Below, one piece after another: positions 622 to 29,359 of a stretch of 32,000 nt of DNA. The stretch's first letter is position 1; the number at the start of each line of letters is the position of its first letter. Below the pieces are notes generated by a model. The model was not told where the DNA came from. It ran no database searches and saw only the letters and a program-made list of their open reading frames with translations. This DNA is from Candidatus Saccharimonadota bacterium (GTDB taxonomy: Bacteria > Patescibacteriota > Gracilibacteria > BD1-5 > UBA2023): NCBI GenBank assembly GCA_046350815.1, contig JAXLZO010000001.1, forward strand, positions 990,001 to 1,022,000, in the 5' to 3' direction. The position numbers and the translations under genes were made by a program.

Positions 622-630
622 AGTTGGTAT

Positions 631-951: not shown

Positions 952-1009
952 ATATGCATCTTTCCATAGCAATGTTATGCTTTGTATCTGATAAGCTATT
1001 TCTGCGATA

Positions 1010-1615: not shown

Positions 1616-1697
1616 AAAGACTTCCTCCTGAAATAGATATTTGTTTTTGTGGAACCGTTATTCTATGGAAAAATGAATTTTGTCAAACAAAGCATAC

Positions 1698-2594: not shown

Positions 2595-2657
2595 ACAAGC
2601 AGTGCTAATATTTGAGTCAAGACTAGCACACTCTCATGTAGAAGTCAAATAACCTCA

Positions 2658-3869
2658 TTATCTAAGTTTCTCTCGATATCATTTTAATAGAATCATTTGA
2701 TTATCTATACTTTTCACCTGCATCATAAGGCGATCGCTTGCAAGACGAATAGTAGCCTTTCCTGCATCATTATTAATATTCTGAGTAGTAGTACCCGCTT
2801 CAGACAGAGTCTTTTGTAGTGTCTCTCGGTTTTTTTCTAAAAGCGCAATAATCTCATCAATTGGCCGCATCACCTGATTCCGAATCCATGACTCAAAGAG
2901 AGAAAAGTTAAAGATCTTACTGTAGGAAGATGACTCAAGCAATCGACGCAATAGAATGATACATTGAACGCTCGTATTCGCTTGAGAGCTAACATGAATC
3001 ATATTCTCATTGAGACGCCCAATAAGATCACCCATCCACTCATTTTTCTGTGCGCTTGATAAATCAGAAACAAGAGATTTACTTGAATTTTGGAGCATGT
3101 TTGATGATGACTCGATACTCAGAAAAGTTCGATTGATACGATAGAGTTGATTATTGCGGGCACGCAGTATGAATCTATTCAAAAATGAAAAACTAAGACC
3201 AAGCACCCAAGCAAATCCAACACCGATACCATACATAACGACAATAGCAATGGAAAAGAGTGTACCAAGAAGATAAGCAAATGGTAGAATCCTCACATCA
3301 ATATCAGCTGTATGAGAAAGTTTTTCAAAAATTTGTTTTATCTTGAGAAGAAGAGAATCAAAAAAAATAATTTTCTTTTTTGCAAGATGAGATTCTCCAA
3401 GAAAAGGCTCATCAAATTCATCTTCCCAAACTTTCATTTCTTTATGCGATCAAACATCCTCAAACGATACAATTTCTTGACCGAATACAAGAGCCTTATC
3501 AGTAAAAACCACATTTGCAACATGATTAAAAAGAAAAGACCGTCGAGTTGATCGGAGAATCAAAATAAGGAAAATGATTGGATAGACAAGTGCTATTGAG
3601 AGAAGTAATCCACTAAAAGCTCCTGAAGTACCACCAATAACCATACCAATTGTGGCGAAGATGCTTGAAAACACCGCCATTGGGAAAAGATATCGATCCA
3701 TTATTGAGAGATAATCTCTCTGAATCGTGATCATAAATTCAGACGGAGATATCCATTCATAGAGATGAAATCCTCGAGTTGAGATATCTGACTGTATTTC
3801 CTGAGGAATGTTTAGATTGCTAGCAAAATTATCATCCTGAGATAACTCATCGAGAGTAAGTACTGACAT
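2658..3869 (-). CDS. membrane protein (N-terminal and central hydrophobic segments, C-terminal helical region)
   Basis: Track ORFs 3450..3875 and 2679..3437 share a frame and are joined by TGA 3450-3452. TGA 2679-2681 is read through to TAA 2658-2660. ATG at 3869-3867 is preferred over the track TTG. Hydrophobic stretches include FPMAVFSSIFATIGMVIGG, LLLSIALVYPIIFLILIL and LLGTLFSIAIVVMYGIGVGFAWVLGL. Confidence 0.65.
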
Positions 3870-3923
3870 ATTCAAGGAAAACTATGAGAATCAAAGCATA
3901 TGAGTATTTGACGTATTTGTCCA

Positions 3924-3953
3924 ATTAAAATCTCGCTTTCGCGAGATTTTAAT
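3924..3953 (-). terminator. strong hairpin immediately after the TelA-like stop codon
   Basis: ATTAAAATCTCGC-tttc-GCGAGATTTTAAT is a perfect 13-bp stem. A T-rich run follows on the minus strand. Confidence 0.55.
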
Positions 3954-5098
3954 TATTGACTGAGCTCCTTGGCGAACTCTTCTTGTTCTTTCGCGCCAAG
4001 TACCTTCACACTTGCAAGCTTCACACTCGCTTCATCGAAGAGTTTTCGTTGAGCATCTGCCTCGATCTTCACCTGAGCACGATATGACTCAATGGTATCA
4101 AAGTGGTTCTTGAGCTTCGTCACATTTTCAATAAATACCGTCGAAGAGAGTACTGGCTTTGCTGAGAGCTCCTCACTTTTACGAGATGATTCGATTGCTT
4201 TATCTGTGAGCTCAGAGGACATCTTATCAATCGTCTCCCCCATCACAGAGATTGCTTTCATTGATGCATCAAGAGCTTTTTGAGAACTTGTCTCAATGAG
4301 AGCAGTCGAAAGAAGTGTCTTGAAAATAGGGCGACTTGAACTCATAGAAAGTGAGAGTTTAGCAGCGCTATCAAGACGCATGAGGAGTCTCTTGCGAGCC
4401 ATATCAAGATTCCCAATAAGCACTACGAGATTCGCTTGAAAATATTCTACATGACGAATGAACATTTCATACTTAAGTTTTTGATTCTCATCTGTCTCAG
4501 TCGATGCTCTCGTTCGGAACTCCTCGATCTTTACTGTCAAATAGTCTTTGTACGCAACAACCTTACCAAGATTTGCATCAATTCCATCAATAAATTTTTT
4601 CTGCATATCAACACTCGTATTGAGCGAACTATATGCTTGATCAAATCCTGAGAAAATTACTTGGATTTTTCCTTCGAGCGACTTGATATTGAATGATGCT
4701 TCATCCCACTTACTATCAAGTGTTTTTGCAAGAGATCCAATGAGCGGAATCGACTTAGCGATTTTCATGACCGTGCCATCATTATCGATAATCTCTTTAT
4801 AAACCGTTTGCACATCACCATTCATTTTTGCAAGCGTATCAGATACTTGCATGATCGGATCATGATCAATTATAGCTGCTGTTTCAGAGATAATAGAGTC
4901 AATTGGAGCAGTAATTTTTTCACCGAGAGAGCGAAAATCTTTAGCTTCCGCAAATGTCTTCTCCACATCAGCCTGTTCGAGTGCCGTGAGTGGACGAGAT
5001 GGTAATTCAACAATTGTTTGGGTTGATGATGTAGTTTTATCATCGGTTTGAACCTGAAAATCGGACATATCTAAAAAATAATAAGTAAGCGGTTCCAT
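3953..5098 (-). CDS. TelA-like (toxic anion resistance family) protein
   Basis: Intact 381-aa track ORF ending in TAA with no TGA at all. It is long, helical and Lys/Glu/Ser-rich, with size and layout reminiscent of TelA/YceH-type proteins. The call is from memory. The start may instead be the second ATG (MSDFQ...). Confidence 0.5.
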   Translation of the reverse strand: MEPLTYYFLDMSDFQVQTDDKTTSSTQTIVELPSRPLTALEQADVEKTFAEAKDFRSLGEKITAPIDSIISETAAIIDHDPIMQVSDTLAKMNGDVQTVYKEIIDNDGTVMKIAKSIPLIGSLAKTLDSKWDEASFNIKSLEGKIQVIFSGFDQAYSSLNTSVDMQKKFIDGIDANLGKVVAYKDYLTVKIEEFRTRASTETDENQKLKYEMFIRHVEYFQANLVVLIGNLDMARKRLLMRLDSAAKLSLSMSSSRPIFKTLLSTALIETSSQKALDASMKAISVMGETIDKMSSELTDKAIESSRKSEELSAKPVLSSTVFIENVTKLKNHFDTIESYRAQVKIEADAQRKLFDEASVKLASVKVLGAKEQEEFAKELSQ

Positions 5099-5205
5099 TC
5101 TATAACAAACAAGGAGTATTTACAAAAAAATGAATAAAGAAGATACAAAAATAAATTGACAGAAGTTTACTTATGTATTTAATAATTTTCTAAAAAGACT
5201 TCTTT

Positions 5206-5294
5206 ATGAAAAAAATCGATCAAATCTTCGATGAAATACATGACTATGTATGTGATAAAAATGCGACTGCACTCGATCCACAACAAAAAAAGAA
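5206..5294 (+). pseudogene. 5' fragment of a small membrane-protein gene split by IS insertion
   Basis: ATG 5206 gives MKKIDQIFDEIHDYVCDKNATALDPQQKK. The frame then runs into the IS and stops after GLNQLRVILTK. Removing the IS plus one copy of AAAAGAA joins it in frame to 6055..6517. Confidence 0.6.
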
Positions 5295-6047
5295 GGGTCT
5301 AAACCAGTTACGGGTTATATTGACGAAGTAACTTTAGCACTTCCTTATAAATATCTTTTCATTGAATACGACAATTATATCTGAATTCAGATTCTTTCAA
5401 AAAATAGTAGAAGTAGACTTTCTTGATTCCATTGAATTGAGAGAGTCTTCTTTTGGTATAACTCCAAAATGACTCTATTCAATTAATGTGTTGAGTTCAT
5501 CTTGCAAATTCATTTGCTCCGTGATGAACACGGTAGTGTTTCTCATATCCAATATCTACAAGCCCATCATAAGCTCACCATCCATCACTGTTAATCTCAG
5601 ACTCTTCTATACGAAGTTTTCATCGAATGATTGGCACGAGAGTCCTTGCTTTTACATCAGGAACTATCTCAGTATATACTTTTCAGTTTCTTTTGAGTAA
5701 ACCAAAGACTATTGTCTTCATACCAGCTCACCTTCCTCTCTTTCATCGGACTCTTGTTGGTCAGAAGTAACTCTCATCTATCTCAACATTTCCAGTCCAT
5801 ATTTCATTCTTTTCTCTCTCACAGAGAAAGGCTATCGCCTTTCTGATATATCTATACCAATCCTGTGTTGTTTTTGGATTGAGACCTGTTAATACCGCTG
5901 TTTTATCTGAAGTAAAATCCAGAGAAAAATATTTCACAATTTCTCTTATTTTTGCATCTCAAATTCGTGATTTTTTCCTATAGGTAGTTTTACTGATCAT
6001 AGAGCCAAGTTTATGGGATAATTTATCCTGTCAACTGGTTTAGACCC
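5295..6047 (-). mobile_element. IS1595-family insertion sequence, copy 1 (753 bp)
   Basis: Terminal inverted repeats GGGTCTAAACCAGTT (5295-5309) and AACTGGTTTAGACCC (6033-6047). Flanked by the direct repeat AAAAGAA (5288-5294 and 6048-6054). Appears base-for-base identical to 29360..30112. Confidence 0.9.
5308..6000 (-). CDS. IS1595-family (ISXO2-like DDE) transposase, 230 aa
   Basis: Code-25 translation reads MISKTTYRKKSRIGDAKIREIV...VEIDESYFGPTRVRGKRGRGAGMKTIVFGLLKRNGKVYTEIVPDV...SDGWGAYDGLVDIGYEKHYRVHHGANEFARGTQHINGIESFW. These are typical IS1595 transposase motifs. Ten in-frame TGA codons are present. Confidence 0.9.
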
Positions 6048-6517
6048 AAAAGAAAACCTTCTATATAAAAGATATACAATATCGAAGTGCAAAAAATATT
6101 GAAGATATACGTCAAAATACTCTTCTAAAAATATCAACTCTTGGTGGAGTATGATTATTATTCGATACAACTCCCACTATCGATAGTATTGCAAAAGGGA
6201 TAATTGCCACGGGATATGCCTTTTATCCATTCCTTCGAGACAAGATAACAAACGATAAAGGTATGCGAGATTTTTATACTATTCTTGGGACATGACTCAT
6301 GCTTTCATCTCTGACATATATTGCAGAAACTTCAGATATAGATGTGGGTGTGCTGACTAATTTTTTGTCATGATTCTACATTATATATTGGATCAACTCA
6401 AGTGATCAGCCAAAAAAGCGAAAACGATGATTACAAGATGAAAGCCTCAAACAAAAACTTCTTGACCTGATAAAACCACTACCAATTGCAACAAAAGCAA
6501 AGACCTCTGAGATATAA
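6048..6517 (+). pseudogene. 3' fragment of the IS-split small membrane-protein gene
   Basis: The frame starting at 6056 is open to TAA 6515-6517 with 5 TGA and no TAA/TAG. Hydrophobic segments include LGGVGLLF, IIATGYAFYPF, LGTGLMLSSLTYIA and FLSGFYIIYWI. Confidence 0.55.
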
Positions 6518-7471: not shown

Positions 7472-7608
7472 AAAAAGTTTATAAAGTTGATGATTATAGA
7501 GATTTTTTTATTTTTTTCAAGAGATGAATTTTTAGCAGAGATCATAAGTTTTATGAATATTGACAGAATATATTTCTATAATAGTATGAAAAAAATAATA
7601 CCTGTGCT

Positions 7609-8391
7609 ATGACATGAAAAACTCCTGGCGAGCACAAATGAGATGAATCAAAAGTCATCGATATCACCTCACGCCTTCCCATACTTACACCTGAACAAGA
7701 GCGTAGAAAACCAGACGAATGATGACCTATAAATATCGTCCAGTTTACCAAAAAAATGATACAAGATACAATGACACCAAATGAACGAGAGGAATCAAAG
7801 AAATTGGAGAAAAAGCTGAACACACTCTATCTCAGGTTGCATGAAAACATTCAAACCTTTGATACGATCTACAATCAGCTTGGATATATACCAACTGATC
7901 TGAGCGCTTGGGAGAATAACAATCATCAGATATTCACCGAAGTAGCAAGTCTCAAAGGGTATAGGGGATGAATTTGCTCCGAGACACGCTCCATATGTGA
8001 AACAACAGGAGATTATCTCTATACCAGAGGCATTCTTCAGGCAAATTCTGATACAACACCACAGGAACGCATAAGCATACTCACCATTGAAACGTACAAA
8101 GGCATAGAGACAAAAAAAATGAAAGATAATGATATCCCTGATATCCCTGATATACGTTATAAAGGGGTCAACAAATTTACCATTACACTGACACACTACA
8201 AACAACAATCATTGAGCAAAACACGGATTCTCGTACATCTTGGACTCTATGATGAAATGGGTAACCTTCAAGAAATTCTCAATCTGACGAATATTTCGGA
8301 GAAAAAAATTATAGAACTATGCTATATGCAAGCGATTGAAACGGTGCAAGTATTGATACATCAACTCACATCATACATCAATCAAAAGTAA
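7609..8391 (+). CDS. hypothetical protein
   Basis: Track ORFs 7756..7971 and 8119..8391 share a frame and are joined through TGA 7969-7971. The frame is open back to 7585, and the first ATG is at 7609 (ATG 7756 is an alternative start). It ends in TAA and is followed by a hairpin. It contains a DIPDIPDI mini-repeat. Confidence 0.55.
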
Positions 8392-8392
8392 A

Positions 8393-8419
8393 AAAGACCC
8401 TCGCGAATGCCGGGTCTTT
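8393..8419. terminator. bidirectional hairpin terminator
   Basis: AAAGACCC-tcgcgaatgcc-GGGTCTTT, flanked by an A-run and a T-run. It lies between convergent genes ending at 8391 and 8444. Confidence 0.55.
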
Positions 8420-8443
8420 TCTATTCTTATCCTCCTTTGATAT

Positions 8444-8806
8444 TTATTCTTTATAAATTTTATCAAGTGATTGATGAGCATGATGTCGCATCAATCTACA
8501 AACCGGATTATCCACAGCAAGCGTTTGACCACTCACATCGATGCAACGGAAGTAAATCGTCGATACATCTCCCTTGAGTGGTCCATACATCGAACGAAAT
8601 TCCGGCTGATGGACACCAGTAATTATAATAAAATCATCCGTGTCGATATTGGGTATCCATACACTACACTTGCCATCACCAAGCCTGAATTTTGCGTTAA
8701 GAATCACAAGAGAATATTCACTTGTCCAATCGGGCAAATAAATAACTTGAATCACTCTAGATGAGGATTCATCGAACTCTCCAAAGAACGACGCTGAAAT
8801 TGTCAT
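8444..8806 (-). CDS. hypothetical protein, 120 aa
   Basis: Track ORF 8444..8815 begins at GTG. The in-frame ATG 8806-8804 is preceded by AAGGAG (reverse complement of 8815-8820) with an 8-nt spacer. TAA stop and no internal TGA. Confidence 0.65.
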   Translation of the reverse strand: MTISASFFGEFDESSSRVIQVIYLPDWTSEYSLVILNAKFRLGDGKCSVWIPNIDTDDFIIITGVHQPEFRSMYGPLKGDVSTIYFRCIDVSGQTLAVDNPVCRLMRHHAHQSLDKIYKE

Positions 8807-8869
8807 TTCTCTCACTCCTTCATAAATGGTTCTGATACTCTAGTCAAAAATTATCTTTGTCAATATTTT

Positions 8870-9337
8870 CTATTGCTTTTGTTCGAGTGAAGAAGCTTGA
8901 TAGCATTTTTCTGCCAATAAAAGTGGTGATGTCATGTATGGGACATTGATAATACGACCATCTGTTATAGCAAACTCAATTTGCCCCATATCTAAGATAC
9001 TATCGAGTGGCGACTTCTTTCGAGAGGTAATAGATGCAATATGATCATTATTTATTTTTTCAATTCTGTATTCAAATGGAGCACGAAATCGAACAATAGT
9101 TATGTTATTTTCATCAATTTTTAATCCAGTCAGGTAGTACGATGCGAGTTGGAGTCCAAAAAAGAGTACCACAAAAACAAGAAAGGCTATTGAAAGCATG
9201 ACCATTAATTCACTCGGAAATGATACGATACTCTCACGGGAATAAAAAAGCAAAAAAGAAACGATACTTCAAAAAAAAAGGGTTCAAACTGGAAGTACAA
9301 GAAGAATAGGATGAGAACGATAGAATAATATAGACAT
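8870..9337 (-). CDS. membrane protein with C-terminal bacterial PH-like (YdbS/DUF304-type) domain
   Basis: Track ORF 8870..9253 extends upstream through TGA 9269-9271 and 9284-9286 to ATG 9337-9335. Two hydrophobic helices are followed by a roughly 80-aa beta-rich domain. TAG stop. The family call is from memory. Confidence 0.55.
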
Positions 9338-9338
9338 A

Positions 9339-9932
9339 CTAGAGGGGAGCATCAAGAGATAAAGGAGCCGTATGTGCATTCGAGAAAGTGATATGAGGCT
9401 TTTTGATATAGAGTGGCTTGAGAGGAAATTCTTCTTTTCCAAGAGGAAGAACACAATCTTGAAAGAAATTCATGATATTCTCTGACGAAAAAAAATTATC
9501 CCTATCATCATCGATATGATAAATAGAATCAGAATATTCCACTTCAGGTATAAGACTCCAACCATGACTGTCAAACGCAACTGCTCTCTCTGCTTTATTT
9601 GCCTGCAATGACAGAGGGAATGGAACGCCGAGCATATGTGCATAGGCAAAGCGATCAATAGAAAAGAGTGCAATATTATCAGTGATATGGAGAGTGGAAA
9701 GCATTAAAGTAATCACTCGAGTTGCTGTGAATCCTCCAGGTCATGTCACTATTGTGATGGTGCGGATACTCCCCCATTCATATCATAATCAAGAAAGAAA
9801 CTCAGAAAGCTTCTCAAAGAACATATCATATTCCTTACCGCGTATATCAATAAATTCGATTCACACAATATCCTGGTCTGATTTGAGAACAAAACAAGGA
9901 CTGTGATCAAATATATTTATAAATACATTCAT
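9339..9932 (-). CDS. tsaB: tRNA threonylcarbamoyladenosine biosynthesis protein TsaB (YeaZ family)
   Basis: 197 aa in code 25. Track ORF 9339..9716 is extended through five in-frame TGA to ATG 9932-9930. The motif IVTGPGGFTATRVITLMLSTL matches the GPGSFTGLRIG core of TsaB. Confidence 0.7.
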
Positions 9933-9937
9933 AATAT

Positions 9938-12900
9938 TTAGTAAAGACGTGAATAAAGCTTATCTGGAAAATGAATTCTTAAAATAGCCTTGCTACCATC
10001 CATAAGCACAATCACAAGATGCCCAGTATTTGTCACAACTCGATAGGTTAAGCTCGAGTCAAGTCGTGCAAATTGAAGACTCGGTGAAAGTACAAAGAGT
10101 GGAGCTCATTCTTTGGTACGCAGAATATAACCTCCTGGCATATACGGACTGGAAAGTGGGATTTGTTCGAGAACAATCTTTGTGCTATTATCAGCTCGTT
10201 TGTTCGAAAGGAGTTCCATACTGATAGTTCCACTCAACACGGATTGACCTGGCGCAAGGAGTGTAATAGGACGACTTTCAAAAAACGGATCACGTCTAAT
10301 GGCCAGTCTCATAAGTGGCGTATCACCATAAGATACATCGAGTGTAGCAGGACCTTCTGTTGTTGAATCAGTTACAGAAGTGCGTACATTTGGGTTTTTC
10401 GGGGTAACTATTCCACTCATCTCATCAAGAGACGCAATGAGAGATCCTGAGAGAGAAATTTCGAGTGTATTATCTCGTTTTGGAGAATAGTTATATAAAA
10501 ATGACCCGGAAGAAGTAGTGAAAATCGATACTCATTTACTAAGATGTTTGATACCAGATCAGCGCTTACGCATAATATCAATAGGAATATTTGATTTTTG
10601 AACATCTATTGCACCAAGAATCTGTGGTGGATTATACACAATAGTATCAATGGACGGCACTGGAGCGCGGACCGTCACAGATAGATCAATAGGTAGAAGA
10701 AGACCATCTTCCAATGCAAGATTTATTTTTGCACTATACGTACCGAGCGTATCAAAAGGAGCAATCAAAAGCTTTTGACCCGTCGCATCCAAACTCAGGC
10801 GTGAGCTAAGTCCGCTATCCCCTATTACATCAAGTATTTGCGCTGCTTTACTTGGAAGCAAAATATCACTCGGAAAGGCAATATTACTTGCATCATTCAA
10901 TACCATATTGCGTTGATAAGCAAGTCCTGAGAGCGCATCATACCGAGAAGATTTTGCATCGGAAATAAGCATTGGAAATGCCTCCACCGTACGAGTATCG
11001 CTCATATCACTGATACGTGCGTAGGTAAGATTTGGTGGATTTTTGATTGTAACCTCCAAGTGTCCATCTCATCGATTCGATTTCAAAAGCTGAAATCTTG
11101 ATATTCCATTGAGATTGATAAAGGACTCGTTTCATACAAAAGCATGACGTATCTTGAGTTGCGAAGTAGTTTCCATGAGCTCAATGTCTGTATCAGGTGT
11201 GAGCACCATTCATGCTATATCACGAAGGTCCACCTCACGAGATTCAATCGTATCACCCAAGAGTGAAACCTGACCATCAAGTACACGAACCGTTACATCT
11301 TCATCAGCAGTATATGAAGATCAGCCATCGAGAGGTAGAATTGTTGGCTTACCAGTACTCAGAGGTGTGACTTGAATACGAGTTGTACGATCTGTAAAAA
11401 TTGGCTTAAGTTCACTCAGAGTAAATATCTGATCTTTTTGGAGTTGTGTAGAAGTACGAGTGGTGATTCGCACTTTTCATTTACTCGACGAATCAATAGA
11501 TAATCGAGCTGTAACAGCACCCGTTGCACTTGAGAGAGAGACGGTATTATTCACATCCGATATAAGGATAATGCCCTTGGAATTATCTGGTTTTCAGAGA
11601 GATGAAAGTGAGGTATGATACGCTCCATAATCAAGTCTATAGAGATTGTCATTGGAGGTATCAGCATCAAATCAAATCGTCAAATTTCGCCCCTTCATCG
11701 ATGACTCACCGATATAATCAGGAGTCATATGTGATGAGAATCCATCAGGAAAAAGATCTGATATTTGCTTGATATCTGGTGCTGTTTCGCCAGCAAAGAG
11801 GGAAATATACGTACCTTTTGATTTTTTTACATAAATACTATTTCCGTTGATATACAGTACATCTGCTCTGCTTGAATCATTCGTGAGAGCAAATTTCGTA
11901 ATACGAGTGGATGCTGTGAGGCCTTCTGTGGCAGTTGTAAAGAGACGTTGAGCATCACCAGATCGATAATAAAGCCCTGGGTAAGAACTCGGTGTCTGTT
12001 GTGGATTATCTCATGAAGTGAGTGGAGGTGCTGCATCAACTGGAGTTGCTACCGAATTACTGATATTCTCAAAGAGCTTTCAAACAACATCATTCATTTT
12101 TTGAGTACTACTTGACTGATAACGTTGAAGAGCCTCTTCTCGATCATTTCGCTCATGAGAAACATACCTCAAGATACTCGCATCTGAGAGAATCGATGTT
12201 TCTTTTGTTGTTTGAAGAGTATGTATTTGCTCTCGCATCTTTTGATCTTCTTTCATGCTCGCATTGAAGTAGGATCGAATTTGTTCAAATCGCTCAGCAT
12301 TCTCAGAGAGGAGTTGATCTTTGATACGTGTATCTGCTCGAGAGCTTGCAATATCGCGATCAAGTTGACTAGAAATAGTTTGAAGTTTGGATGTGATTGC
12401 TGGCTCATCTAATTCCTTTGATAACCTTTGTAAATCACGTCTTGATTGAGCAATAAAAGTATCGCTATCGAGGAATACACCAGATTGTGAGAGAACTTCA
12501 TTTTCCAATTTTGCGAGTTCACCTGATGCTGTTTGAAGCATAGGAATCATGAAATTAAACTTTTCTTGAAGATTTTTTATTTCTCCAGAATCATTGAGAT
12601 TCACATCGCGATTTATTTGGCTATTGATACGATCAATTTCTTCACGAACTTTCGGTGGAACCTGTTTATTGAGATCAATAATTCGATTTGTATTGAGTTC
12701 TGAAGCTTTTTGATTGATAGATTCTGTAGCTCGCAATCCTATAGCATTCAGAGGTTCGAGCTTTTCTCGAACAAATTTTGCAATAATATCCACTTTTGAT
12801 GTGTAATTCACATAAGATGTAACTTTGATAGCATCGATTCCTGTCATCGGAATATTAGGAATATCCAGATGGAGAAAATCAAGTGATGGAAGCATTGCTT

Positions 12901-15900
12901 GGCGATCAGTTATTTGAGCAATTCTCTCACCCGCATATGTTTCTGGAACAAATGGATTAGTCCTGAGGATACAGAGCATCTTTTTAACGACCTTAAATAT
13001 CTTGAGAACTCAACCAAGTCCAGCAAGTCACATAATATTTGGTATTTTTGGTGGTGGAGGGAGATTTGGGAGGGTAACACCAGGAAGAGAAGGGATATCT
13101 GGAAGTGATGGAAGTGTAGGTGGTGCTGGAATAATATTTGGTACTGCTGGTAATGTGAGACTCAAAGATCCAAGACCAATACTCAGATCCGGCCAGACTA
13201 CCTTTGGGGGGCGAGGAAGCATAAGTGGTTGAGGATTGAGATCAATCACCGGCATTGCAAGAGTAACCCCAAGCCGAATATTATGAATATCAAGAATAAT
13301 ATCAGGCCACTTTGGAAAGATAAAAATTGGTATTTTTGGAATCACTGCACTAATAAGCTTGACTATAAAATACTTGAGATCATAGCGCTGATTAACACAA
13401 GACGAGCACTCTGCTTCATATCACTGAAAAAGATCAACAAATACTTGCCAAGATTGAAGAATAGCCTTCAAAAGAACATACATTTCAACCCATTTCTGGA
13501 AGCGAATACCATTATCCGCAATAAATCAGCCCGTTATCTTTTCAAGTTGTTCAATATTACAAAGTATTTCATAGGCATATTTTTCTTTCCAGGTAAGATA
13601 TTTTTGAATATCTTGTGGGAGACGTTTATAAGCATCAATTGCCTTGAGATTTGCTTCGATGGATTGGCGAAATGGTCCACTATCAAACATGAATTTTTCC
13701 TCAGCACTCATCTTATCATATCAGTTTTTTGCCTTTTCAGAGAGTTGTTCAGGTGTAAGTGGAACCTTCTTGGCTACTTCTGTGACCGTATTACTCAAAT
13801 CAGTAGCAAATTTGGTCCACTCTCGATCAGCAAGTTCCAATTCACGATCTTGAATAACAGGATATGTTACTGGTACATGTTCCTCAGAAATAGTCAAAAA
13901 TGGCAGCGAACCAAGAAAACTATACGCAGCCTCGATTCATGAAAGCCCTCATTGCACCTGATTTTCAAAAGATTTCAAACCATTTGATGCACTCGTATAG
14001 GTTGTACTAAGACGAGTCGATGCAGATAAATTACCACTGAGTTTCTGAAGTGATTGCTCCCGAGATTGATTGAAGTTATTACCTGGTAATTTCTTGATCG
14101 TCTCAGGAGAAAGATCAGAAAAGAAATTCATATCAGGCAATTTAATATAGATAGTCGGGAGAGTGGTGAGCTTTGTTTGAACTTCCTCCATCTGACGATT
14201 GACCCAATCCATAAGAAAGTCAGGAAATCAAGATACACGAAAATTTTTAATCTTTACAATATCATGAAAATCAAAATCACGAATCTTATTAAGATCAAGA
14301 GAGACTTCCAAAGTATCATCACCAATACTTCCATCACCTATAGAAAGAAGTGGTCATTTTTTGGTTTTTCCAGCCGTTAAGAGGCTTTCCGGTATACTTT
14401 TTGGATCACTACTGCTCACGCTAGATATAGTATAGCCATTATTCACCACCTGTGATCTCAGCTCATTTATATCTTTTTCAGTAGGCATCTTACAAGATGA
14501 TCCGTTATAAAAACCACTACTCTGACCACCACTTGTGCTCACGCCCATATTTCGAATATCTCATGATGATCCATCTTTGCTGCAGCTTGCAAGCGGTCTT
14601 GCTGAAACAAGACAGTTTCCTGCAGGGTTAAGCGGCCAGGTAGCATTAAGTGCTATTGGTGAAATATTTGGACCAAAACAAAGTGCCATTGATTTTGCTC
14701 CACTTAATGTTGGAGAAACAAATAATCTCATCTGACTAACACCTGGTGGTCAAAAAATTCATCATGCACCAGCTGCAGAAGGTGGCCAATATGGTATAGG
14801 AGGAATGAATGATGGTATTGTCTGCATTGCAAAAATCGGAACACCCATAAATGGCGTTGGCGGATATGCAGGCATTCAACCAAGAATACGCGGTGCTCAA
14901 CCTGGCATAAGAGGAGCCCAATTCACAAATGTATTCCAACATCACTGTGCACCATATCAACAAGCAAACGTACCTATGAGATTGTCAACTGATTCAGATA
15001 TTTCATCAAATTTCTCATCAGTGAGGAACTTATCATCATTTAATGTGATAGTATTACTGCTCGTATCAAGTTTATAGAAACTTTTATCTTTTTTATCTGA
15101 TTCTGCTTGCAATTCATTTTTATAATCATCTCCCATTTTCCTCATTGTTTCAATAGTACTTGTATCGAGGTTATTTACAGCACCAGTACTACTTATGGAT
15201 ATATCCTTTACATCATTTATTACCTTGTTAATATCATCACTAAAACCGACCCCATTCCCAACTGGTACAGCTCATGGAAGGGTCGTTTTCTGGTATACCC
15301 GTGGGCTTGTTTGATCAAAGAGGATCGATGAACTACCACATACATCACTCGTGCTATAAGCAATCTCACCAAGATTATCATTATCCATATTTCCCACTTG
15401 AAGTGATTTGAGGGAAATTTTTTTGAGCGGAAGTATACTCCGAATCTCAACTTTTTCACCAGGATGAAGACTAATCTCGTGAGTGATGCGGTCATAACCC
15501 GTTACACTCACAGGAATCCAACCACGTGTCTGATACTCTGAAGTACTTCCATCCTTTGATATAACACGCCACTGGTAGGTTGCTTCACCTTGAGTAACGA
15601 TCTTTGGGAGTCGATCAAGTATTTTGACCTGACGATCCACTCAGCTCACATTCTTGACGGTTGTCATCGATGTGAGCTCACCAAGATCTTTCAGGAGTGA
15701 ACTACCTGATCCGCTCAATACCTTTGTTACCTCGAGTCACTCGACAAGTGCACGATCACCACGTACATATGGAATTCATGATTTCTCATCAGTAATAGCT
15801 CGCACATCAGTACGTTCTGGTGAAACATATGAATTTGCAGAGCTTGAACTTGCCTCAAATAAATCTACTATACCGCTGCCACTAGTTGAAACTACTGTTG

Positions 15901-18900
15901 ATGTAATTGGTCAAGCAGTTGCTTGCCTCTCCTGATTATTGGGAATTTCACCATAGAGCTCACTGCGAATACGTGCAGAGATCGGATCTCATTGCACTAT
16001 TGCAGGAAGTATGATATGACTATCAGCAATAGCAACTCAAGCAATATCAGAGCCGTCAGCAATTTTGATCACCATTCATGAATCGATATCCGTCTGATCA
16101 AAAGCAATACTATCATTGCGAAGCGAAAGAACAGATATCGTGCCACGATTATCAAGTGCAACGATATCATCGCGACCATCCTGATCCATATCGTATACCT
16201 CAAGTTGATGAACGATCATGCTGTATCTTGATTGGGTGCCTCATTGAGCTACGAGAATAGGAGTTGGTACCATACGACCACCTACATTCCCATAGAGTGC
16301 AAGATGTCCCGTATCATCAATGAATACTAAATGAGACCCCTTTCCTTTGGAAGAAATCGTTCGAATCGTTTTGAGATTTGCTTGGGGGAGTCTCGCGAAT
16401 ATTCACCTATTTCGTAGAACTCCATTTGTATTTTTAATGAGTCGTAATACTCATGATTGATGAACAGCTATGATGTCATCAAAACCATCTCCTTCCAGAT
16501 CAAGTCGAAGCGCCGAAAAAATAGTATCATTCGCTCCATCATACACTTTTTCTCCTATACTCATATCATAAGTAGCGCTGCGATCTTTTACCGGAAGAGA
16601 AAAAGTAGGATCTCCAAGATGCATCAAAAATATAGAATTCTCACCCACTAGTGCATCACCAATGCGAGTACCTCAAGCGATATCCTGAAGAAATGGTCGA
16701 GATAAATCATCATCTTGCCAAGGACGCGAGCTATTTAAGCTGAGAGAAAGATCGTCAATAGTAATACCTAAGACTGTAGTACCTGGAATAGAATTTGTCT
16801 GTGCACCAACATATCAACGACCGAGAACAATGGATCGATCTCATGGATAGACGACCACCGATTGACGCAAAGTATCTTCAGAAACTGGAGTTGTAAGATC
16901 AGCTTTTTCCAGTGTTACTCATTTATGTACAAGGATCATCTGAGCTATTTCACGATCACCATCATACACTCAAAACCTGATGAGCCCATCAGTGGAAACT
17001 GGACGAAGACTCATTCATGATGCGAGTTCATATTTTCCATCTACTGTTGCTGTCATGAGGATTGTATCATCACGAACAACGCGCATCGCTCACTGCACAG
17101 ATTGGATTTGAATATCACTACTACTTTTTGCGAGCGCAAGGATATTCTGATCAGCAAGTGGCGCGCAAGAATCAATATTTCCAGTACAAGCAATGAGAGT
17201 CCGATCCATATGCGGAAGAGACACCTTTGCAAGAAGGCGACGAGAGGTGCGATCGACAATATTATAACGGAGATATCCATTCGAAATCTCCGTAGTTATT
17301 TCATTGGAAGCTGATCAGATATTTGAGAGCTCAAGCTTACCTGTAGAGAGTACGCCAGCAACTCTCTGTGATCAACCACGAGAACTATATGATGTTACAC
17401 CGAGCACACGACTATCACGATCAAATATCATAGCATCACCCATAGTCTCACCACCATCTTGATCAGCATATGCATCACCAGTCAAAAAAGCATATGTAAA
17501 AGATGGGTTAAGGTCATGAATATCTTTTGGACTGATAACAGCACCCTTTGAAAGAAGAATAGTATTTTTAGAACTTCCATAAATGACATCTCTCAAATTC
17601 GGATCTGAAGCATTGATGATATAACTATTCGCAGAGAGATTACGTGAACTTTGAGCACGCAGAAGTGATCTCGTACCAGCAAGAGTTCCAGTAATATCGA
17701 TCATCCAAATTGCTGGTTGACCTGCAATTTCACCCAAACTCAGTTCGGAACTGACTCCTCCATTATACAAAAGCTTCGAAGCATTAGTCGAGGAGATATT
17801 GGTTGATACAAGACTCATATCAACTTTTTGACCACCCTGACCAAATACAACGTTTCCATAAATATCACGCAAAGATACCTGTACACGACTCGTATCACCT
17901 GATGTATCGAGTGCATCTAGTGCGACAAACATAGGTTGATCTGGTAGTGTCGGAACCGTAGCAGAATATGACCCTGCAAGCCCTGCTACTTGTACCTGAA
18001 TTTGTGCACTTGGATTGGATTTTGTACGAGAAGTTATTTGTACATAAGGACTTACCCCATTGGTCACCTGAAGCGTAGTACCAGAAAGAAGTAATACATC
18101 AGATGAAAGTGTGGATAAAGAGGAAAAATCAGTTGCAACTTGAGCATTTGCATTTTTTATAACCACCCTACCAGAGACCGATTTTCATCATACAACGAGA
18201 GATTGATTATTCTGTATTTCAAAAGTAATTTTGAGGTCTTTTGGGTTTTTTAAGGTTTTTTCGACACTTGATCCTTCATTTAAAGTGGCTTTGATACGAA
18301 TACTATCGATATTCTTATCTGGGATCAAAGTAAGAGCGGTTGATCATACAATAGTCAAATCTTGACGTGCCTTTCCTCATTTAAATTGAGCATTTGTCAG
18401 TTCGACCAAGATATTAGTATTTTGTGCAATATTTCATTCACTATCGAATGCTTTGATCACCACTGGGGTAGAAGATCAGGCTACAAAGTAGTCCGATGGA
18501 GCTACGATCTGGAGACGCACTGGATCAGATGGCACAACACTATATTCAACGATAGCACTCTCTCCATCCTCAGCCTTCATTACTAGTAAATAAATACCAG
18601 TTTTTTTGAGTTCATTTATGAACAATTTCTGACTCAAATCAGTGATATCTGTAGTATAAATACGATTTCCATTCGTTCGATCAAAAATCTCCAGGTGAAG
18701 TTTGGAAGGGTTTCCATCACGACCATAATAACGCAGGCTCGAAAAATCAATGGGCTCATTTGAACGTTTTGATGTTGGAAGACCAAATATATCGATACCA
18801 CTCCAGCGAACATTCATACTGATATTTGCAATCTTTACGCCATTTTGACGAAGAAGTACAAAATCATAGCGAGCATCACCTCGTTTTGGTTGAAAATCAA

Positions 18901-21900
18901 TACCTGCCTCCCCATTACGAAGAACAAAAGAATCTTCTGAATAATCAACATAAGTCTTCTTAACACTAGCATTCTCGATACCATAACGATACAGATCTTT
19001 GCCTGTTTTTGTATCAACAATTTTCATCAAGCGCACACTGTAGAGCTCATTATCAGGAGTGTTAATGATTACATCATTCGCAGCAAGATGAGTTGCAACT
19101 ATTTGATACTTGCCACGATATCATACATCGGTGAGTGGACTTGAAAGCTTGAAATAACTTCCATCCGATATTGACGGAATATCAGGGTCTGGAATGGATG
19201 GAATACTTGACACAAGATCACTCAAGGTAGGAATGCCTACTGTACGAGCCGTACAAACACCAGGAGTAAATGAAACTTTTATCTCATTTTTAATCCAACA
19301 CTGAATCGCTTGAGGCCATTTTGTAAGTTCTACTCCATCAATTTTATTATCCGGACACTCTGATGAAGGAGTTGGAAGAGATGTATTTTTAACCGCAATA
19401 TCAAATGATCAGAGAGCTTGACTCGTTGTGACGATTCTGCTAATATCTTTTTGTACAGCAATATCCTGAGGAGTAAGGTTGATAGCTTTTGCATCCGCCT
19501 TATTGAAAGTTACGGAAAAACCACCATTATTTGCTTCGCTGCGAATGAGTGCTATTTCCTGAGGTTTTCCATAGAGACCTTTTTCAAAAGTATCTCCAGC
19601 AGATGTAAGCTTGATATTACCATTGAGTAAATTGCGAAAAGCAGCATCGTATTGACTCTCAACATCCGTTCGAGTCGTCCATTCGAGAGCAGATATAAGA
19701 GTATTATAGAAATTCGCATCTTTTGTAACAATATCTACCAATTTTGGGGTATCGCTTGGGTAGGTGTCACGAAGAGTATCATAGACTCATTTTTCAGATG
19801 CAGAATAAGACAGTCATGAAATATACGCACTACCTGCGGACTGTGAATTAGGATGTGTTATATAAAAATCATTATCCGATGTGGTTCGCACTAATGTACC
19901 ATCGCTAGTAGTTCAGGTTCAAAAGCTAGCATCTGAATAACCAGCAAAGGGTATATAGCTTGAGTTGGATCGTGTACAAATATTGTCTCATGATCAACCA
20001 ACTTCCTGACATTCATAAACATAATCCTTTGGTTGCAAATTTCATGAAATAGAAGCATAACCAACATAGTCTTTTGAAGGACCAACAAAATAGAGAGAGC
20101 TTATGTTAAATTTTTTCGTTGCCACTCCTCATCATTCAGCGTTACATATAATTGTGTTATTATCAGGATCAGATGGTTGGCAATATTTTGTATTTACTCA
20201 AAAAGCAGTGACAATATCATTGTCAGTAAGACTTGGAGAATAGAAACCATCATTCCATATACTCATGGAGTATTTAGAATTGTATAACAAAGAACTGAGA
20301 CCATTACAAACAAATACAGACAATCCATCAACCGTTTCGTTTCTACAGAGATTGAGCCGTGAAGTTGTTCCAGGTATTGTTGTTGTATTAATGAGAGATA
20401 CGCCTGGTAAATAAATACTATCCCCAATAGTACGAAGTTTATTTGGATGATTCTTTGTGTACGAATCGTCCATTTCTTGCTGTTTGGTCTTGAGATATGC
20501 ACGCACTTTTGCATCAATCACTTCACGACTATCTCCTCGCTCTATATTGAGACGGAAAAAATTTGGAATCTTAAATCTCTCTGTTTTTAACGATGGGGTA
20601 AGATAAGCAAATTGCGGGTCTTTATCTACAGGTATGTTTGGCGTTGCCCCATTCGATCGTATAACAGAAAGCTCTCAAGAAGTAGGTGAATTTTGATAAA
20701 GAAGTGATGGAACGAGTTTATAATCCGCTTGGAATGCAGTTGTTGGAAAATAGGTGTCATTAATAAAACCATCGCATGATTGTCATCAATTATTGGTGTA
20801 AATCTTGATTCCTGATTTGTTCATAAGATTTACACGCCAAATTTGGCATTGATTTCGAAAAGGGATAGTTGCTCCAACAAAATCCTTGTACTGCATTTTA
20901 GAAAGAGTGTTTATATCATTAAATGTTTCTATCGGTTGATTACAAGAATATCTATCTCCGGATGTATTTGACGGATAGTATACGGTATGACTATCTCTCC
21001 AATATCACCTATTTCTCCAAGTTTTTGCTCTATTTTGCACAATATACGACGATGGTTGCTTTATAAGATCATATTGCAAACACAAGGATGGATCATTTTT
21101 ATAGATATTCGCATCAATTTTTTTTGATCCACCAATATCAAATATAGGTTTTACAAAGCCGGTAAATGCAGCTTGTTTTCCATTACGTGTAAGATTTTGT
21201 GCAGTAGAATCATATGCAAGAACCGAGTGATTTCCCCAGTATGATTTTGTTTCTGGTGATGATTCCCCTTCGCTATCATTTGGAAAGCACGAATATTTAC
21301 CTGCAGCGTTGGTAGTTTCATCAGAGAGGAGCTTCGCATCTCAGCCATTATCTCAAGCAGCATTAAATCATTTTGACATCATAACTGTTTGTGTTGATCA
21401 TCGAAAAATGGAGCAATGTTCTGCACTTATAATTTCTGAGGCTTTTTTTCAAGAAAAATAATTATCATAATCAAACCAATTTGCAGCATAATAATTCCTA
21501 CTTGCATCTCATATACCACGATTTCGGTTATTATTGACTTGACCATTTTTATATGTAACAAGCACTGGAGCATCAACCGCAAGATCCTCAAAATAAGGTT
21601 TAATTATTGATGCGAGCATATCATTTGCTCATTTAATAAGACTATTCGCAGCTTCATCCGAACGAGTGACCGATGTAGGAATAGTATCGAGAAGGAGCTT
21701 ATCATTTGTACCTAGATATCGACCCAATCGATATACAAAACCATCACGGTCAGAAACAGATTTTGAACCAAATAATTCAACAAACTGTTTGAGTGATTGC
21801 TCAATAATAGTGACTGACTGAATATCAGGAATATTCGACATAGCACGCGTCGCCGAATCAAGTATATCAGTAAGCTGAGCATTTGTAATGCTTCATGTTG

Positions 21901-22780
21901 ATACTCATTTTTCTTTCGCCAAAGCTTCCACCAAAACATCTTTATAATCGGGATCTCCATTGATAAGATCCTGATTTCCATTCAGAATGGATGAAATTTC
22001 TTGGGACCAAGATGCTGTATAGCGCTTGTATGTGAGATCTTCTCTTGATATCTGTCGGAGTCTATAGGATCTATACACATCCATCGAAAAAGATTTTGCA
22101 TCTTCGACATTGTCGACAACAAAGACACGTGGCTCTTCACTTATAAAATTAGAAAAACGATTTCGTTTATTGGTATAATCATCAAGTTTTGCAAAATAAT
22201 CGAGTATGCCTTGCCTATCAAGGGTAGAATCTCCCGTGTGTGGACGCAGTATTCCATGTCCAATCTCTGATATAGCCTGAGTATTGCTTTTATTGAGGAC
22301 AAATCTTCACTCCTTAGAATCAAAACGAAATTTTCTATCCTCAAAATCAACATAAGGGTATATCGATACTCCTATTCATTCTTCGGATTTAACAACTGGA
22401 AGTGGTACATCTCCAACGATAAGAGTATAGGCGAGTCTTGCTGAAGTTTTACCATCTCATTCATAGTAGAGTTTTTGTTGAATTTGAGCTATTTCTTGAG
22501 GTTTTGTAGTTATAGTAATTGGAACGATCAAGGTTCGTATATCAGGGTTGGTTCGCTCAACATTTTTTGCATACTGAATAACAGCTGTTTCGAGTGCACC
22601 ATTAAATATACGGTCACTCACAAGAATGGAGAGAAGATTTGGACGATCCGGTGCATCCGCAAAAGCATTATTCAAAAATGGTATAGATACCGTCTGAGTT
22701 AGCAAAAAAACAAACAACAAAAATGTTGCCACCGACATTTGCCAAGAAGCATAGGGGTGTTCATGAAACACACTCTTCAT
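9938..22780 (-). CDS. giant secreted or membrane-anchored multidomain surface protein, 4,280 aa
   Basis: Sixteen track ORFs all lie in one frame: 10106..10420, 10559..11059, 12080..12979, 13028..13345, 13526..13711, 13949..14212, 14354..14548, 14957..15145, 15272..15640, 16451..16648, 17372..18166, 18476..19036, 19409..19741, 20198..20521, 21629..21841 and 22457..22780. I read every gap triplet by triplet and found only TGA (hand count 83 in total), never TAA/TAG. The first real stop is TAA 9940-9938. ATG 22780-22778 is followed by a hydrophobic signal or anchor segment. Confidence 0.85.
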
Positions 22781-22938
22781 TTTTCATCGGACCTTTGGAA
22801 AGGTAGCAAAGAGAGATGATCAAATGGAACGAAAGCGTGAGTAATTTCTCTGGAACAAAAGACAATATTGAATTCATTCTATTTTATAGATTGTGAGATA
22901 TATGCAAACAAAAAGACAATGATAAAAATCAAAAAAGA

Positions 22939-22967
22939 TTGGACAAAATTCGAATCATTTATAGAAT
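22939..22967 (+). promoter_or_regulatory. candidate sigma70-type promoter for tRNA-Lys
   Basis: TTGGAC (22939-22944), a 17-nt spacer, then TAGAAT (22962-22967), 27 nt upstream of the tRNA 5' end. Confidence 0.3.
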
Positions 22968-22994: not shown

Positions 22995-23070
22995 GGGAAT
23001 GTAGCTCAGTAGGTAGAGCAGCGCCCTTTTAAGGCGAAGGTCCCGGGTTCGAACCCCGGCATTCCCACCA
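22995..23070 (+). tRNA. tRNA-Lys, anticodon UUU, CCA encoded
   Basis: Cloverleaf folded by hand. Acceptor stem GGGAATG/CATTCCC, D arm GCTC...GAGC, anticodon loop CTTTTAA (TTT at 23028-23030), T arm CCGGG-TTCGAAC-CCCGG, then ACCA. Confidence 0.9.
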
Positions 23071-23144: not shown

Positions 23145-23396
23145 ATGAATGATTATAATGAAAACATATTGAACTTTTCATATTTAAATCACATGAACCC
23201 CACAACTCTCTTTATCAGCATTATTGCTGGGGCTATTGGAACAGGATACTTTATCTATGGCAAACGTGAAAGTCTCGCCATGATGATGCTCTCAGGTGCT
23301 GGACTCTGTGTCTATCCATATTTCACTGACAATATAGCAGCACTTTGCATCATCGGAGCAATCCTTATGACAATACCATATTTTCTGAGGTTCTAA
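23145..23396 (+). CDS. small membrane protein, 83 aa
   Basis: Intact track ORF with ATG start and TAA stop. It has two hydrophobic helices (LFISIIAGAIGTGYFIY and IAALCIIGAILMTIPYF). The true start could be the internal Met (MNPTT...). Confidence 0.5.
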   Translation: MNDYNENILNFSYLNHMNPTTLFISIIAGAIGTGYFIYGKRESLAMMMLSGAGLCVYPYFTDNIAALCIIGAILMTIPYFLRF

Positions 23397-24010
23397 ATAT
23401 GCTTATTACTTATCGCAATATATCCCGGAAGAGATTTATAGGGATCTGGGTACTTGTTAATAAGAAGTATAGCTTGTTCAACAGCCTTTGAATGATCGCT
23501 TTCAATAAGATCTGCCGCTATCGCTCATCGAAAAACATCAGCCCATTGAAACTCAATGTAAGGCGTTTGTTCCTTGGAATAGATACCTTGTTCCCTCAAG
23601 AAAGTCGCCAAACTTCTATATGGATCGTTTTTCAGATTCATCACATCCTGGGGTATATCAATAAGATCTCTTTTTTCGCCATTTGGTCAGAAAGAATGAA
23701 CAAATTTCTTTGATTCCATGAGTGACCAAAACTCAGATGGCCAAACAATATGTGTCAAATCATCAACAATGATAAAATCAGCTGTCTCAACTCCAATTTC
23801 CCGAAGTGCCCGACACAAATGATGATGGTCAATAATATAATAGCGCTCTTCAGGTCATGAAACCACTGGGACATGATGATCTCGAATATGAGTATGGAGC
23901 CCACTCTTGGTCATGTGAGACAACCGTTTTATACGCTCATTCACAGCCGTCAAGCCGATAGTAACCTGTGTTGGATGAAGTTTGTGAATATGGATAGAAG
24001 TATGAGACAT
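23393..24010 (-). CDS. ParB-like nuclease domain protein (ParBc_2-like), 205 aa
   Basis: Not in the standard-code track. It is open from ATG 24010-24008 to TAG 23395-23393 with 3 in-frame TGA. Motifs LHPTQVTIG, VPVVSGPEERYYIIDHHHLCRAL and NDPYRSLATFLRE resemble the stand-alone ParB-like nuclease family as I remember it. Confidence 0.6.
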
Positions 24011-29135: not shown

Positions 29136-29359
29136 ATGTGCGGAATATTTTGAATCGTGAGACAAAATGGTGAAGCAAATAAAGCAAAAGAGCTCGTAAA
29201 AGATTTAATTATAGGAATATCACGTCTCGAATATCGTGGATATGATAGCGCTTGAATAGCAATAATTTCACAAGGAAAGACTGATATTCTAAGAGAACGA
29301 GCACTCGGAAAAGTACACGATCTAGAATCTAAGATCGAAAGCAATACAGCAATAAAAAA
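29136..29359 (+). pseudogene. glmS: glmS 5' fragment (glutamine amidotransferase N-terminus), cut by IS insertion
   Basis: MCGIF-G-IVRQNGEA...RLEYRGYDSAGIA with catalytic Cys2. The frame runs into the IS and stops at TAA 29394-29396 after an IS-encoded tail (GLNQLRVILTK). Confidence 0.9.

Follow-up and report, generated by a model that had tools for sequence, protein, structure and literature searches.

The window analysed here, a 32,000-nucleotide stretch of contig JAXLZO010000001.1, carries a giant open reading frame (ORF) that fills 12.8 kb of its minus strand. This ORF is a genuine, single protein-coding gene of a Gracilibacteria genome that uses genetic code 25, and its product clearly belongs to a large, unnamed family of giant proteins that is collinear and passed on vertically. 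We consider it probable that the product is a giant fibre or adhesin that is exported by the Sec pathway and remains associated with the cell envelope. The coordinates of the features discussed below are collected in Table 1.

The ORF was placed on the minus strand because the plus strand of the region starts with TTA and ends with CAT. The original prediction had described a single code-25 frame and had allowed for a stop codon overlooked by hand. None is present: the 4,280 codons include 83 in-frame TGA and no TAA or TAG, and the other two frames of the same strand contain 96 and 177 TAA/TAG over the same region. Given the TAA plus TAG frequency of the window itself (0.024 per triplet), 4,280 open codons in a row would arise by chance with a probability of about 1e-46. 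Read with table 11, the gene is cut into 84 TGA-delimited pieces, not into the 16 fragments first reported, a figure that is probably explained by the pieces of at least 80 amino acids (aa; 17 pieces) or at least 100 aa (14 pieces). The start at Met1 (MKSVF...) is backed by the family alignment; a spurious in-frame extension upstream of the true ATG ('GFEPGT') stems from the sequence of a tRNA-Lys(UUU). The mature product has a mass of about 464 kDa and an isoelectric point of 5.4.

Independent copies were then compared with the gene (labels with L denote relatives' loci, labels with P database proteins). Independent Logan assemblies, found by exact-sequence look-up with a TGA-free neighbour gene and two table-11 fragments, match positions 11712-13905 and 14009-19220 of the window with 99.8-100% identity. 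A sister strain, represented by a contig of the NCBI metagenome-assembled genome (MAG) GCA_964536125.1 (L095), carries an intact orthologue of 4,281 codons with 92 in-frame TGA, whose product is 96.4% identical to the window protein. With these overlapping assemblies and this intact copy, no sign of the assembly chimera considered at the outset was seen. The ratio of non-synonymous to synonymous substitution rates (dN/dS) between the two genes is 0.108 (Nei-Gojobori method; 463 synonymous and 186 non-synonymous differences); it stays below 0.2 in each tenth of the gene and is 0.034 in residues 2996-3423.

The genetic code was assessed by aligning the protein with two distant full-length orthologues. 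In this alignment, the TGA codons of the gene face Gly in 34% of the cells, as compared with 36% for GGN codons and a background of 7%. Since TGA faces Gly as often as GGN does, code 25 is supported. Code 4, in which TGA stands for Trp, was also considered for the gene and was rejected on the same statistics. Invariant Gly columns of the conserved core described below are encoded by TGA in the window gene, and sense TGA codons are also needed by the TrxB, GlmS, GT4 glycosyltransferase and RsgA genes of the window. Finally, standard-code members of the family, for instance P0161, are read as single table-11 ORFs collinear with the window protein, and the architecture is therefore that of one polypeptide.

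To define the family, relatives' loci were fetched with TrxB as a probe and searched by tblastn under code 25. The closest relatives of TrxB, about 60% identical, all belong to Candidatus Gracilibacteria MAGs. Four Gracilibacteria species have syntenic giant ORFs with 28-32% identity and 16-35 in-frame TGA, which are cut by the edge of the locus and hence measure at least 2,871-2,927 codons; C-terminal ends of the giant were found in two more Gracilibacteria species. A profile built on the conserved blocks, with the Pro/Gly-rich low-complexity stretches removed, matched 82 proteins (E 1e-138 to 1e-17), all of them fragments of 165-520 aa without a Pfam domain, the named ones being called 'hypothetical protein'. 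Starting from three of these fragments, we recovered the full-length orthologues L091 (about 4,078 aa, 50 TGA), L093 (about 4,373 aa, 57% GC, 19 TGA) and L095. An exhaustive HMMER search with a fragment-built profile returned 629 cluster representatives at E<=1e-3, the number falling to 497 with a limit of E<=1e-10 and to 340 with one of E<=1e-30. The family includes dozens of full-length proteins of 3,500-6,066 aa; with full length taken as at least 3,400 aa, 91 members were recovered. It is present in Gracilibacteria and Peregrinibacteria. A scan of the GTDB representatives with core peptides of the window gave no relative, the species apparently not being among them.

The order of modules is conserved. 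It is collinear in the standard-code members P0161, P0134, P0174 and P0202, and in the 91 full-length members the core starts at a median of 0.67 of the length (range 0.46-0.77), block 3 of the core of the window protein starting at 0.71. The clade of the window protein shares with distant members the succession of signal peptide, N-terminal alpha/beta domain, FG-GAP repeats and core at about 0.67, but lacks their S-layer homology (SLH), TSP3, FecR and PDZ accessory modules and has a Cys-rich insertion of about 200 aa of its own (aa 800-1000). The genomic position is conserved too. As judged from the synteny comparison called for by the original prediction, seven or more further Gracilibacteria loci (L011, L014, L015, L016, L091, L093 and L099) have a tsaB-like gene directly behind the giant ORF, and the order giant gene, tsaB-like gene, small membrane-protein gene, trxB recurs in the recoded clade (L011, L012, L014, L015, L016, L025, L095 and L099). 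In L017 the tsaB-like gene was found and no match to the giant gene was detected. In the Peregrinibacteria locus L098, the gene order of the recoded clade is not conserved and the flanks differ.

The protein had first been described as of unassignable family. It is in fact a clear member of a collinear family with 629 representatives, although that family is itself unnamed and uncharacterised and its core has no match in Pfam, PDB or PHROGs. Public names in Ca. Gracilibacteria are 'hypothetical protein' (MDD2487531.1, 4,224 aa) and 'VCBS repeat-containing protein' (MCD5380636.1); 'S-layer homology domain-containing protein' (MBI2464194.1, 4,699 aa) is used in Ca. Peregrinibacteria and in one Ca. 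Gracilibacteria cluster, and 'uncharacterized repeat protein (TIGR01451 family)' also occurs. The family is systematically mis-annotated. Some public copies are shredded into table-11 fragments, and many full-length Logan members (P0087, P0089, P0095, P0102, P0109 and others) are translated with code 4; such translations contain about 6% Trp, with W at invariant Gly positions, as in 'LGCWFG'. The family is essentially invisible in protein databases because most of its public copies are either shredded under table 11 or mistranslated with TGA as Trp. A literature search found no paper describing it. What is new is thus the family, its conserved N-terminal domain and, above all, its 750-residue core, which are undescribed in Pfam, NCBIfam, PDB, PHROGs and the literature searched; giant surface proteins as a kind are already known from episymbiotic and predatory lineages of the candidate phyla radiation.

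Conservation along the protein is very uneven: residues 2600-2750, 2800-2900 and 3050-3340 are 40-69% identical between orthologues, most of the protein only 10-30%. These stretches make up the family-defining core. They contain invariant cysteines (in GCGxGxxxC, CFG, GNC, SC, LCN and ECSxC) and further motifs such as KYLTWKE[KR]Y, FPKWPDI, HNIR, LPxLPPPPxIP and NPFVPE..AG..IAQIT.R. Both distant full-length orthologues retain 16 of the 28 cysteines of the protein; most of these 16 form close pairs, and ten of them lie in the core. Because such a conserved, paired pattern is as expected for extracytoplasmic, disulfide-bonded proteins, the window protein is likely to be one of them. An AlphaFold2 model of the core, obtained for fragment P0004 with 82 sequences, is of medium confidence (mean predicted local distance difference test, pLDDT, 66; predicted template modelling score 0.47) and displays beta-hairpins as well as long helices, one of which runs for about 76 residues, and leaves the proline tract disordered. 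Pfam and PHROGs scans of relatives gave nothing over the core region, PHROGs matching solely the SLH region of one relative. A candidate transmembrane anchor at aa 3137-3156 was rejected as a clean transmembrane helix: it is a non-canonical hydrophobic stretch that includes conserved Lys and Pro residues.

At the other end, the hydrophobic N-terminal signal noticed in the original prediction was located at aa 15-37. A site of the signal-peptidase type, AFA↓DA, comes next, and the same layout is present in every family member. The domain behind it is nearly as widespread: at E<=1e-5, window aa ~10-790 can be aligned with 88 of the 91 full-length members, and the domain, which the window protein has, is marked by a set of motifs (LV.I.V....RYA.D.Q ... 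G.VL.G..P.P ... PY.DF ... EIWHG). In an AlphaFold2 model of the orthologue P0086 (16-sequence alignment), the first ~230 residues of the domain form an alternating beta-alpha-beta arrangement with a pLDDT of 75-92, the remainder being poorly modelled.

The adhesin-type modules announced for the middle of the protein are detectable in orthologues as FG-GAP repeats and Ig-like beta-sandwiches. In the window protein itself, aa ~1200-1760 give no Pfam match. Orthologue matches to the Ig-like Glyco_hydro2_C5 (5.5e-18 in P0161) map onto window aa ~1438-1500 and ~1620-1653, and one family member has an Invasin_D3 match in this beta-rich region. The FG-GAP repeats of the window protein fall under the Pfam threshold, yet two canonical DxDxDGxxD Ca loops are present. 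FG-GAP_3 exceeds the Pfam gathering threshold in L093 (39.4 bits for a cutoff of 26.9) and in P0086 (32.8 bits), at a position corresponding to window aa 2094-2220, and FG-GAP repeats are present in 7 of 11 members scanned. When the family profile was compared with the PDB, only this FG-GAP/VCBS region was matched (VCBS propeller of 8w20, E=1.4e-4). Farther on, aa ~2330-2500 correspond to a weak DUF7507 (DUF11-like) match in P0161.

Distant members of the family add FecR, SLH and TSP3 modules in their C-terminal third. SLH domains were found in 4 of 11 relatives scanned, with E down to 1e-23. The SLH module, about 130 aa long, is an insertion missing from the recoded clade: where P0134, P0145, P0161 and P0178 have their SLH segment, the aligned recoded-clade members have a stretch of 27-33 aa. 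The window protein has no match at E<=0.1 in Pfam, SLH (PF00395) included, none at E<=1 in NCBIfam, and nothing significant among PDB sequences (phmmer). A motif search found no LPXTG, lipobox, PEP-CTERM or RTX motif, in agreement with the initial impression that no C-terminal sorting signal is recognisable. Neither LP.[TSA]G anywhere nor a C-terminal hydrophobic segment was found, as a sortase-anchored adhesin would have, nor the GG.G.D motif of giant adhesins secreted by type I systems. Self-BLAST revealed no internal repeats.

Comparison with the sister strain L095 also uncovered an unusual pattern of variation. The flanking genes are 99.5-100% identical at the nucleotide level. In the giant gene, blocks with 99-100% identity alternate with blocks with 88-92% identity (about 19400-20000, 15800-16400 and 13400-14000), and the synonymous divergence (dS) of its segments ranges from 0.004 to 0.43. 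The gene is thus an allelic recombination mosaic, confined to the giant gene, in which purifying selection continues, a combination that would be typical of exposed surface proteins.

Taken together, these features suggest the following working model. The 464-kDa product would be exported via Sec, by means of its cleavable N-terminal signal peptide, and would remain at the cell envelope, where it would form a giant surface fibre of non-repetitive build. The core (aa 2590-3345) and the beta-rich C-terminal part may form a disulfide-stabilised, envelope-proximal module that spans the wall or serves in assembly; in distant relatives, the added SLH module would provide cell-wall binding, and its presence implies that the family is exposed at the surface and attached to the cell wall. 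The faster-evolving N-terminal two-thirds, with the alpha/beta His-Gly domain, the Ig-like modules and the Ca2+-type FG-GAP repeats, would reach outward and contact other cells or surfaces. The protein would then be a candidate host-attachment factor, as in the original prediction.

Several points weigh against this model. The cleavage site of the signal peptide was read by eye from the sequence, without a dedicated predictor, and the FG-GAP and Ig-like assignments of the window protein are carried over from orthologues. Foldseek found no match for the core model in the PDB (best E 1.4) or among viral structures (best E 0.034), and the anchoring or assembly role proposed for the core is a guess. 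As SLH, LPXTG, lipobox and a C-terminal transmembrane segment are all lacking, the protein could be released. In addition, the strong conservation, the single-locus synteny and the low dN/dS fit a housekeeping role in the envelope at least equally well.

This last point leads to the main alternative, which we regard as possible, if doubtful: a mainly structural role, as an envelope or S-layer(-associated) protein by which the cell surface is built or organised, rather than as a host-specific attachment factor. S-layers are reported in cultivated relatives, according to a passage of PMC13293708 that cites Yakimov 2022. A syntenic gene of the core genome, conserved over class-level divergence with a low dN/dS, is what this alternative predicts, and it is also favoured by the SLH domains of relatives and by the CsaB-like pyruvyl-transferase gene near the L093 orthologue. 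However, the clade of the window protein lacks SLH, and FG-GAP and Ig-like modules as well as allelic mosaicism are more typical of interaction proteins. Typical S-layer proteins, moreover, are unlike a non-repetitive, multi-module protein of 464 kDa. Note that the structural and adhesion roles are not mutually exclusive.

More speculatively, and in our opinion improbably, the core, disulfide-rich and with its very long helices, its hydrophobic FPKWPDI hairpin and its invariant LPxLPPPPxIP tract, may be an undescribed machine that spans or breaches cell envelopes, for instance by a wall-spanning stalk and a membrane-active element; Gracilibacteria and Peregrinibacteria would then be defined as lineages by this family, which would serve them as an organelle for cell contact or feeding, with a partner specificity set by the fast-recombining N-terminal modules.

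Another, quite unlikely, possibility is a surface-displayed enzyme or attack device, in which the N-terminal domain would be a clan-CD (gingipain-like) cysteine peptidase or the core would be membrane-active, either of them serving to breach prey envelopes. Related Absconditabacteria are indeed predators (PMC8080830). Conserved amphipathic or hydrophobic helices occur in the core, but no core segment is a clean transmembrane helix. As for the N-terminal domain, it contains a family-invariant His-Gly (SEIGHG in the window protein) with an invariant Cys downstream (CSIFRGS), and the catalytic domains of gingipains K and R are among the top Foldseek matches of its model in the PDB (E 0.03-0.045, probability 0.98-1.0, root-mean-square deviation 4.3 Å, 167 columns). 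However, generic flavodoxin-like folds score equally well or better, and there is no match at E<=1e-3. Pfam did not detect Peptidase_C25 in the window protein or in 13 relatives scanned. The spacing from His to Cys is typically about 30-50 residues in clan CD; here the invariant Cys lies ~265 residues past the His, and the residue at the expected position is not conserved. The resemblance to peptidase C25, which concerns the first ~200 residues or so of the window protein, is thus a weak lead suggested by a model and not an assignment.

It is very improbable that the gene spreads horizontally as an adhesin or polymorphic-toxin cassette tied to nearby insertion sequences (IS). The window does contain two IS1595 copies, and the gene is a recombination mosaic. 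Nevertheless, the nearest IS lies ~3.9 kb downstream of the gene and is absent from sister strains that keep the gene, the GC content of the gene matches that of its flanks, the locus is syntenic in distant Gracilibacteria, and no C-terminal toxin/immunity pair was detected in Pfam and NCBIfam scans. The view that the gene does not lie in an island therefore holds. Lastly, an artefact (assembly chimera, decaying pseudogene, or adjacent genes merged by ignoring TGA), which the 84 table-11 pieces and the uniformly fragmentary public gene calls might suggest, is effectively refuted by the intact 96%-identical copy in an independent MAG, the independent assemblies overlapping the gene (with 19220-22780 and 9938-11712 covered by L095 and L001), the dN/dS of 0.11 over the whole gene, the TGA codons facing Gly, a frame open by chance with a probability of ~1e-46, and the same architecture in standard-code relatives as single ORFs of 3,700-6,066 aa.

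The giant-fibre reading can be set against known systems. The predatory Absconditabacterium Vampirococcus lugosii has ten giant membrane-associated proteins of 1,392-4,163 aa that were proposed to act in host recognition and attachment, the largest being the 'hypothetical' VAMP_16_20 of 4,163 aa (PMC8080830). They stem from a sister lineage in which code 25 is used as well, and they resemble the window protein in size, in their integrin/FG-GAP, DUF11 and Ig-like modules and in their proposed surface location; by contrast, the paper defines no conserved core or family, and our comparison with VAMP_16_20 extends to name and length only. Large extracellular proteins were also noted in a curated Gracilibacteria genome (10.1101/595074). 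By analogy, a giant fibre would fit the proposal for Vampirococcus and these extracellular proteins alike.

Other comparisons are more partial. The window protein shares DxDxDGxxD loops with the integrin-alpha/FG-GAP/VCBS propellers, but over only ~200 of its 4,280 residues. With SLH-anchored S-layer proteins, it is the distant family members that share a bona fide SLH domain, the window protein having no match. RTX adhesins of the LapA/SiiE type, which count among the giant repeat adhesins of monoderm and diderm bacteria, are giant secreted surface proteins with Ig-like modules and Ca2+-binding elements; the window protein has an N-terminal Sec signal instead of their type I secretion. Giant repeat adhesins such as Embp (PMC9302970) and the 7,651-aa Ig-repeat adhesin of Mobiluncus (PMC10619420) are likewise very large and secreted, with Ig-like and Ca2+-binding elements. 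However, they are tandem arrays, whereas the window protein consists of unique, collinear, family-conserved domains without internal repeats, LPXTG or RTX nonapeptides.

Table 1. Features of the giant gene, its product and its neighbours (window positions; residues of the giant protein)
Feature	Residues	Position	Strand	Remark
Giant ORF	1-4280	9938..22780	-	ATG at 22780, TAA at 9940-9938; 12,843 nt = 4,280 sense codons + stop
Sec-type signal peptide (predicted)	1-41	22658..22780	-	n-region, h-region VATFLLFVFLLTQTV, then AFA↓DA
Conserved N-terminal domain	~45-790	20411..22648	-	common to 88/91 full-length members
Lineage-specific insertion	~800-1000	19781..20383	-	Cys/Ser/Thr/Gly-rich; absent from L091 and L093; its cysteines not conserved
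Beta-rich region with Ig-like beta-sandwich modules	~1200-1760	17501..19183	-	assigned via orthologues
FG-GAP/VCBS-type repeats	~2030-2240	16061..16693	-	Ca-binding-type loops DLEGDGFDDI (2094), DMDQDGRDDI (2197)
Family-defining conserved core	2590-3345	12746..15013	-	40-69% identity to orthologues, three parts
Core part 1	2590-2765			Cys/Gly/Pro-rich block
Core part 2	2836-2895			KIKNxRVSxFPDFLMDW...LPTLYI block
Core part 3	3040-3345			long helices, FPKWPDI/HNIR hairpin, LPxLPPPPxIP proline tract, NPFVPE..IAQIT.R
Variable segment	~3350-3570	12071..12733	-	charged, low-proline; partly helical in fragment model, low confidence
Beta-rich C-terminal region	~3600-4280	9941..11983	-	without counterpart of distant members' SLH module
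TsaB-like gene, divergent		9339..9932	-	197 aa; ATG 9932, 5 nt past the giant's TAA; TAG 9341-9339
Membrane protein gene		8870..9337	-	155 aa; ATG 9337, 1 nt past the tsaB-like TAG
Two sigma-70-like promoter matches		22881..22946	-	upstream of the giant's ATG; consensus only, not above shuffled expectation
tRNA-Lys(UUU)		22995-23070	+	between the giant's start and the ParB-like nuclease gene
ParB-like nuclease gene		23393-24010	-	PF08857, E=5e-50

The two genes downstream of the giant gene had been named tsaB and a PH-domain membrane protein gene. The spacings of 5 nt and 1 nt are confirmed; the names are weakly supported. The tsaB-like gene matches TIGR03725 below the cutoff (E=1.9e-7, 31 bits for a cutoff of 69) and over its N-terminal half alone, its product has no Pfam match even at E<=1, and the L099 orthologue gives a weak match to PF00814. 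The 155-aa membrane protein of the window has no PH-domain match in Pfam, its L093 orthologue having a weak match to bPH_2. The proposed core operon is suggested by the tight spacing and the conserved gene order, which do not imply a functional link to tsaB.

Other observations were made on the surroundings of the gene. In L098 (Ca. Peregrinibacteria GCA_016188705.1, standard code), type IV pilus genes (T2SSE ATPase, T2SSF platform protein and N_methyl pilin; 2866-6191) lie just upstream of the giant homologue, and in L093 the 8 kb that follow it include a pilin gene and one for a CsaB-like polysaccharide pyruvyl transferase; this proximity may reflect a functional neighbourhood or chance. The two IS1595-family (ISXO2-like) copies of the window (5280-6055 and 29346-30119) have the same orientation, are 99.4% identical and each encode a transposase of 230 aa, with 10 TGA in frame. 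Since the related strains L001, L006 and L095 lack the copy at ~5295-6047, this copy is a recent insertion. In two Gracilibacteria loci, a different code-25 ORF of ~2,200 codons lies directly downstream of trxB (L035 11354-17938 and L038 11352-17966); it has no similarity to the giant at E<=1e-5 and represents a second type of large uncharacterised protein in this neighbourhood. Elsewhere in the window, the minus strand encodes a 381-aa TGA-free protein without a Pfam match, identical on 11 Logan contigs (3953-5098), a 405-aa membrane protein without a match (2658-3875) and, with 16 TGA, a 316-aa protein that matches the TMEM43 family at E=2.7e-9 (1698-2648). Between trxB and the small membrane-protein gene (7576-8920), code-25 ORFs overlap at 7609-8391 (+), 7576-8271 (-), 8336-8920 (+) and 8444-8815 (-); ORFs 7609-8391, 8336-8920 and 8870-9673, scanned against Pfam, gave no match.

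To our knowledge, Gracilibacteria, which depend on other cells and have to make contact with them, have no cultured representative. The giant gene takes up roughly 1% of a genome that we estimate at ~1-1.5 Mb, and it is kept intact under purifying selection. As it is retained at the same locus in the clade and has relatives over a class-level radiation, it counts among the few tangible targets that the lineage as a whole offers in its putative envelope components. Defining the family mends an annotation problem and brings to light a most conserved module for which Pfam has no model. The conserved core offers a handle for antibodies, cryo-electron tomography labelling, metaproteomic searches and a new profile hidden Markov model, and the variable, mosaic part is a candidate for what sets the specificity towards hosts or phages.

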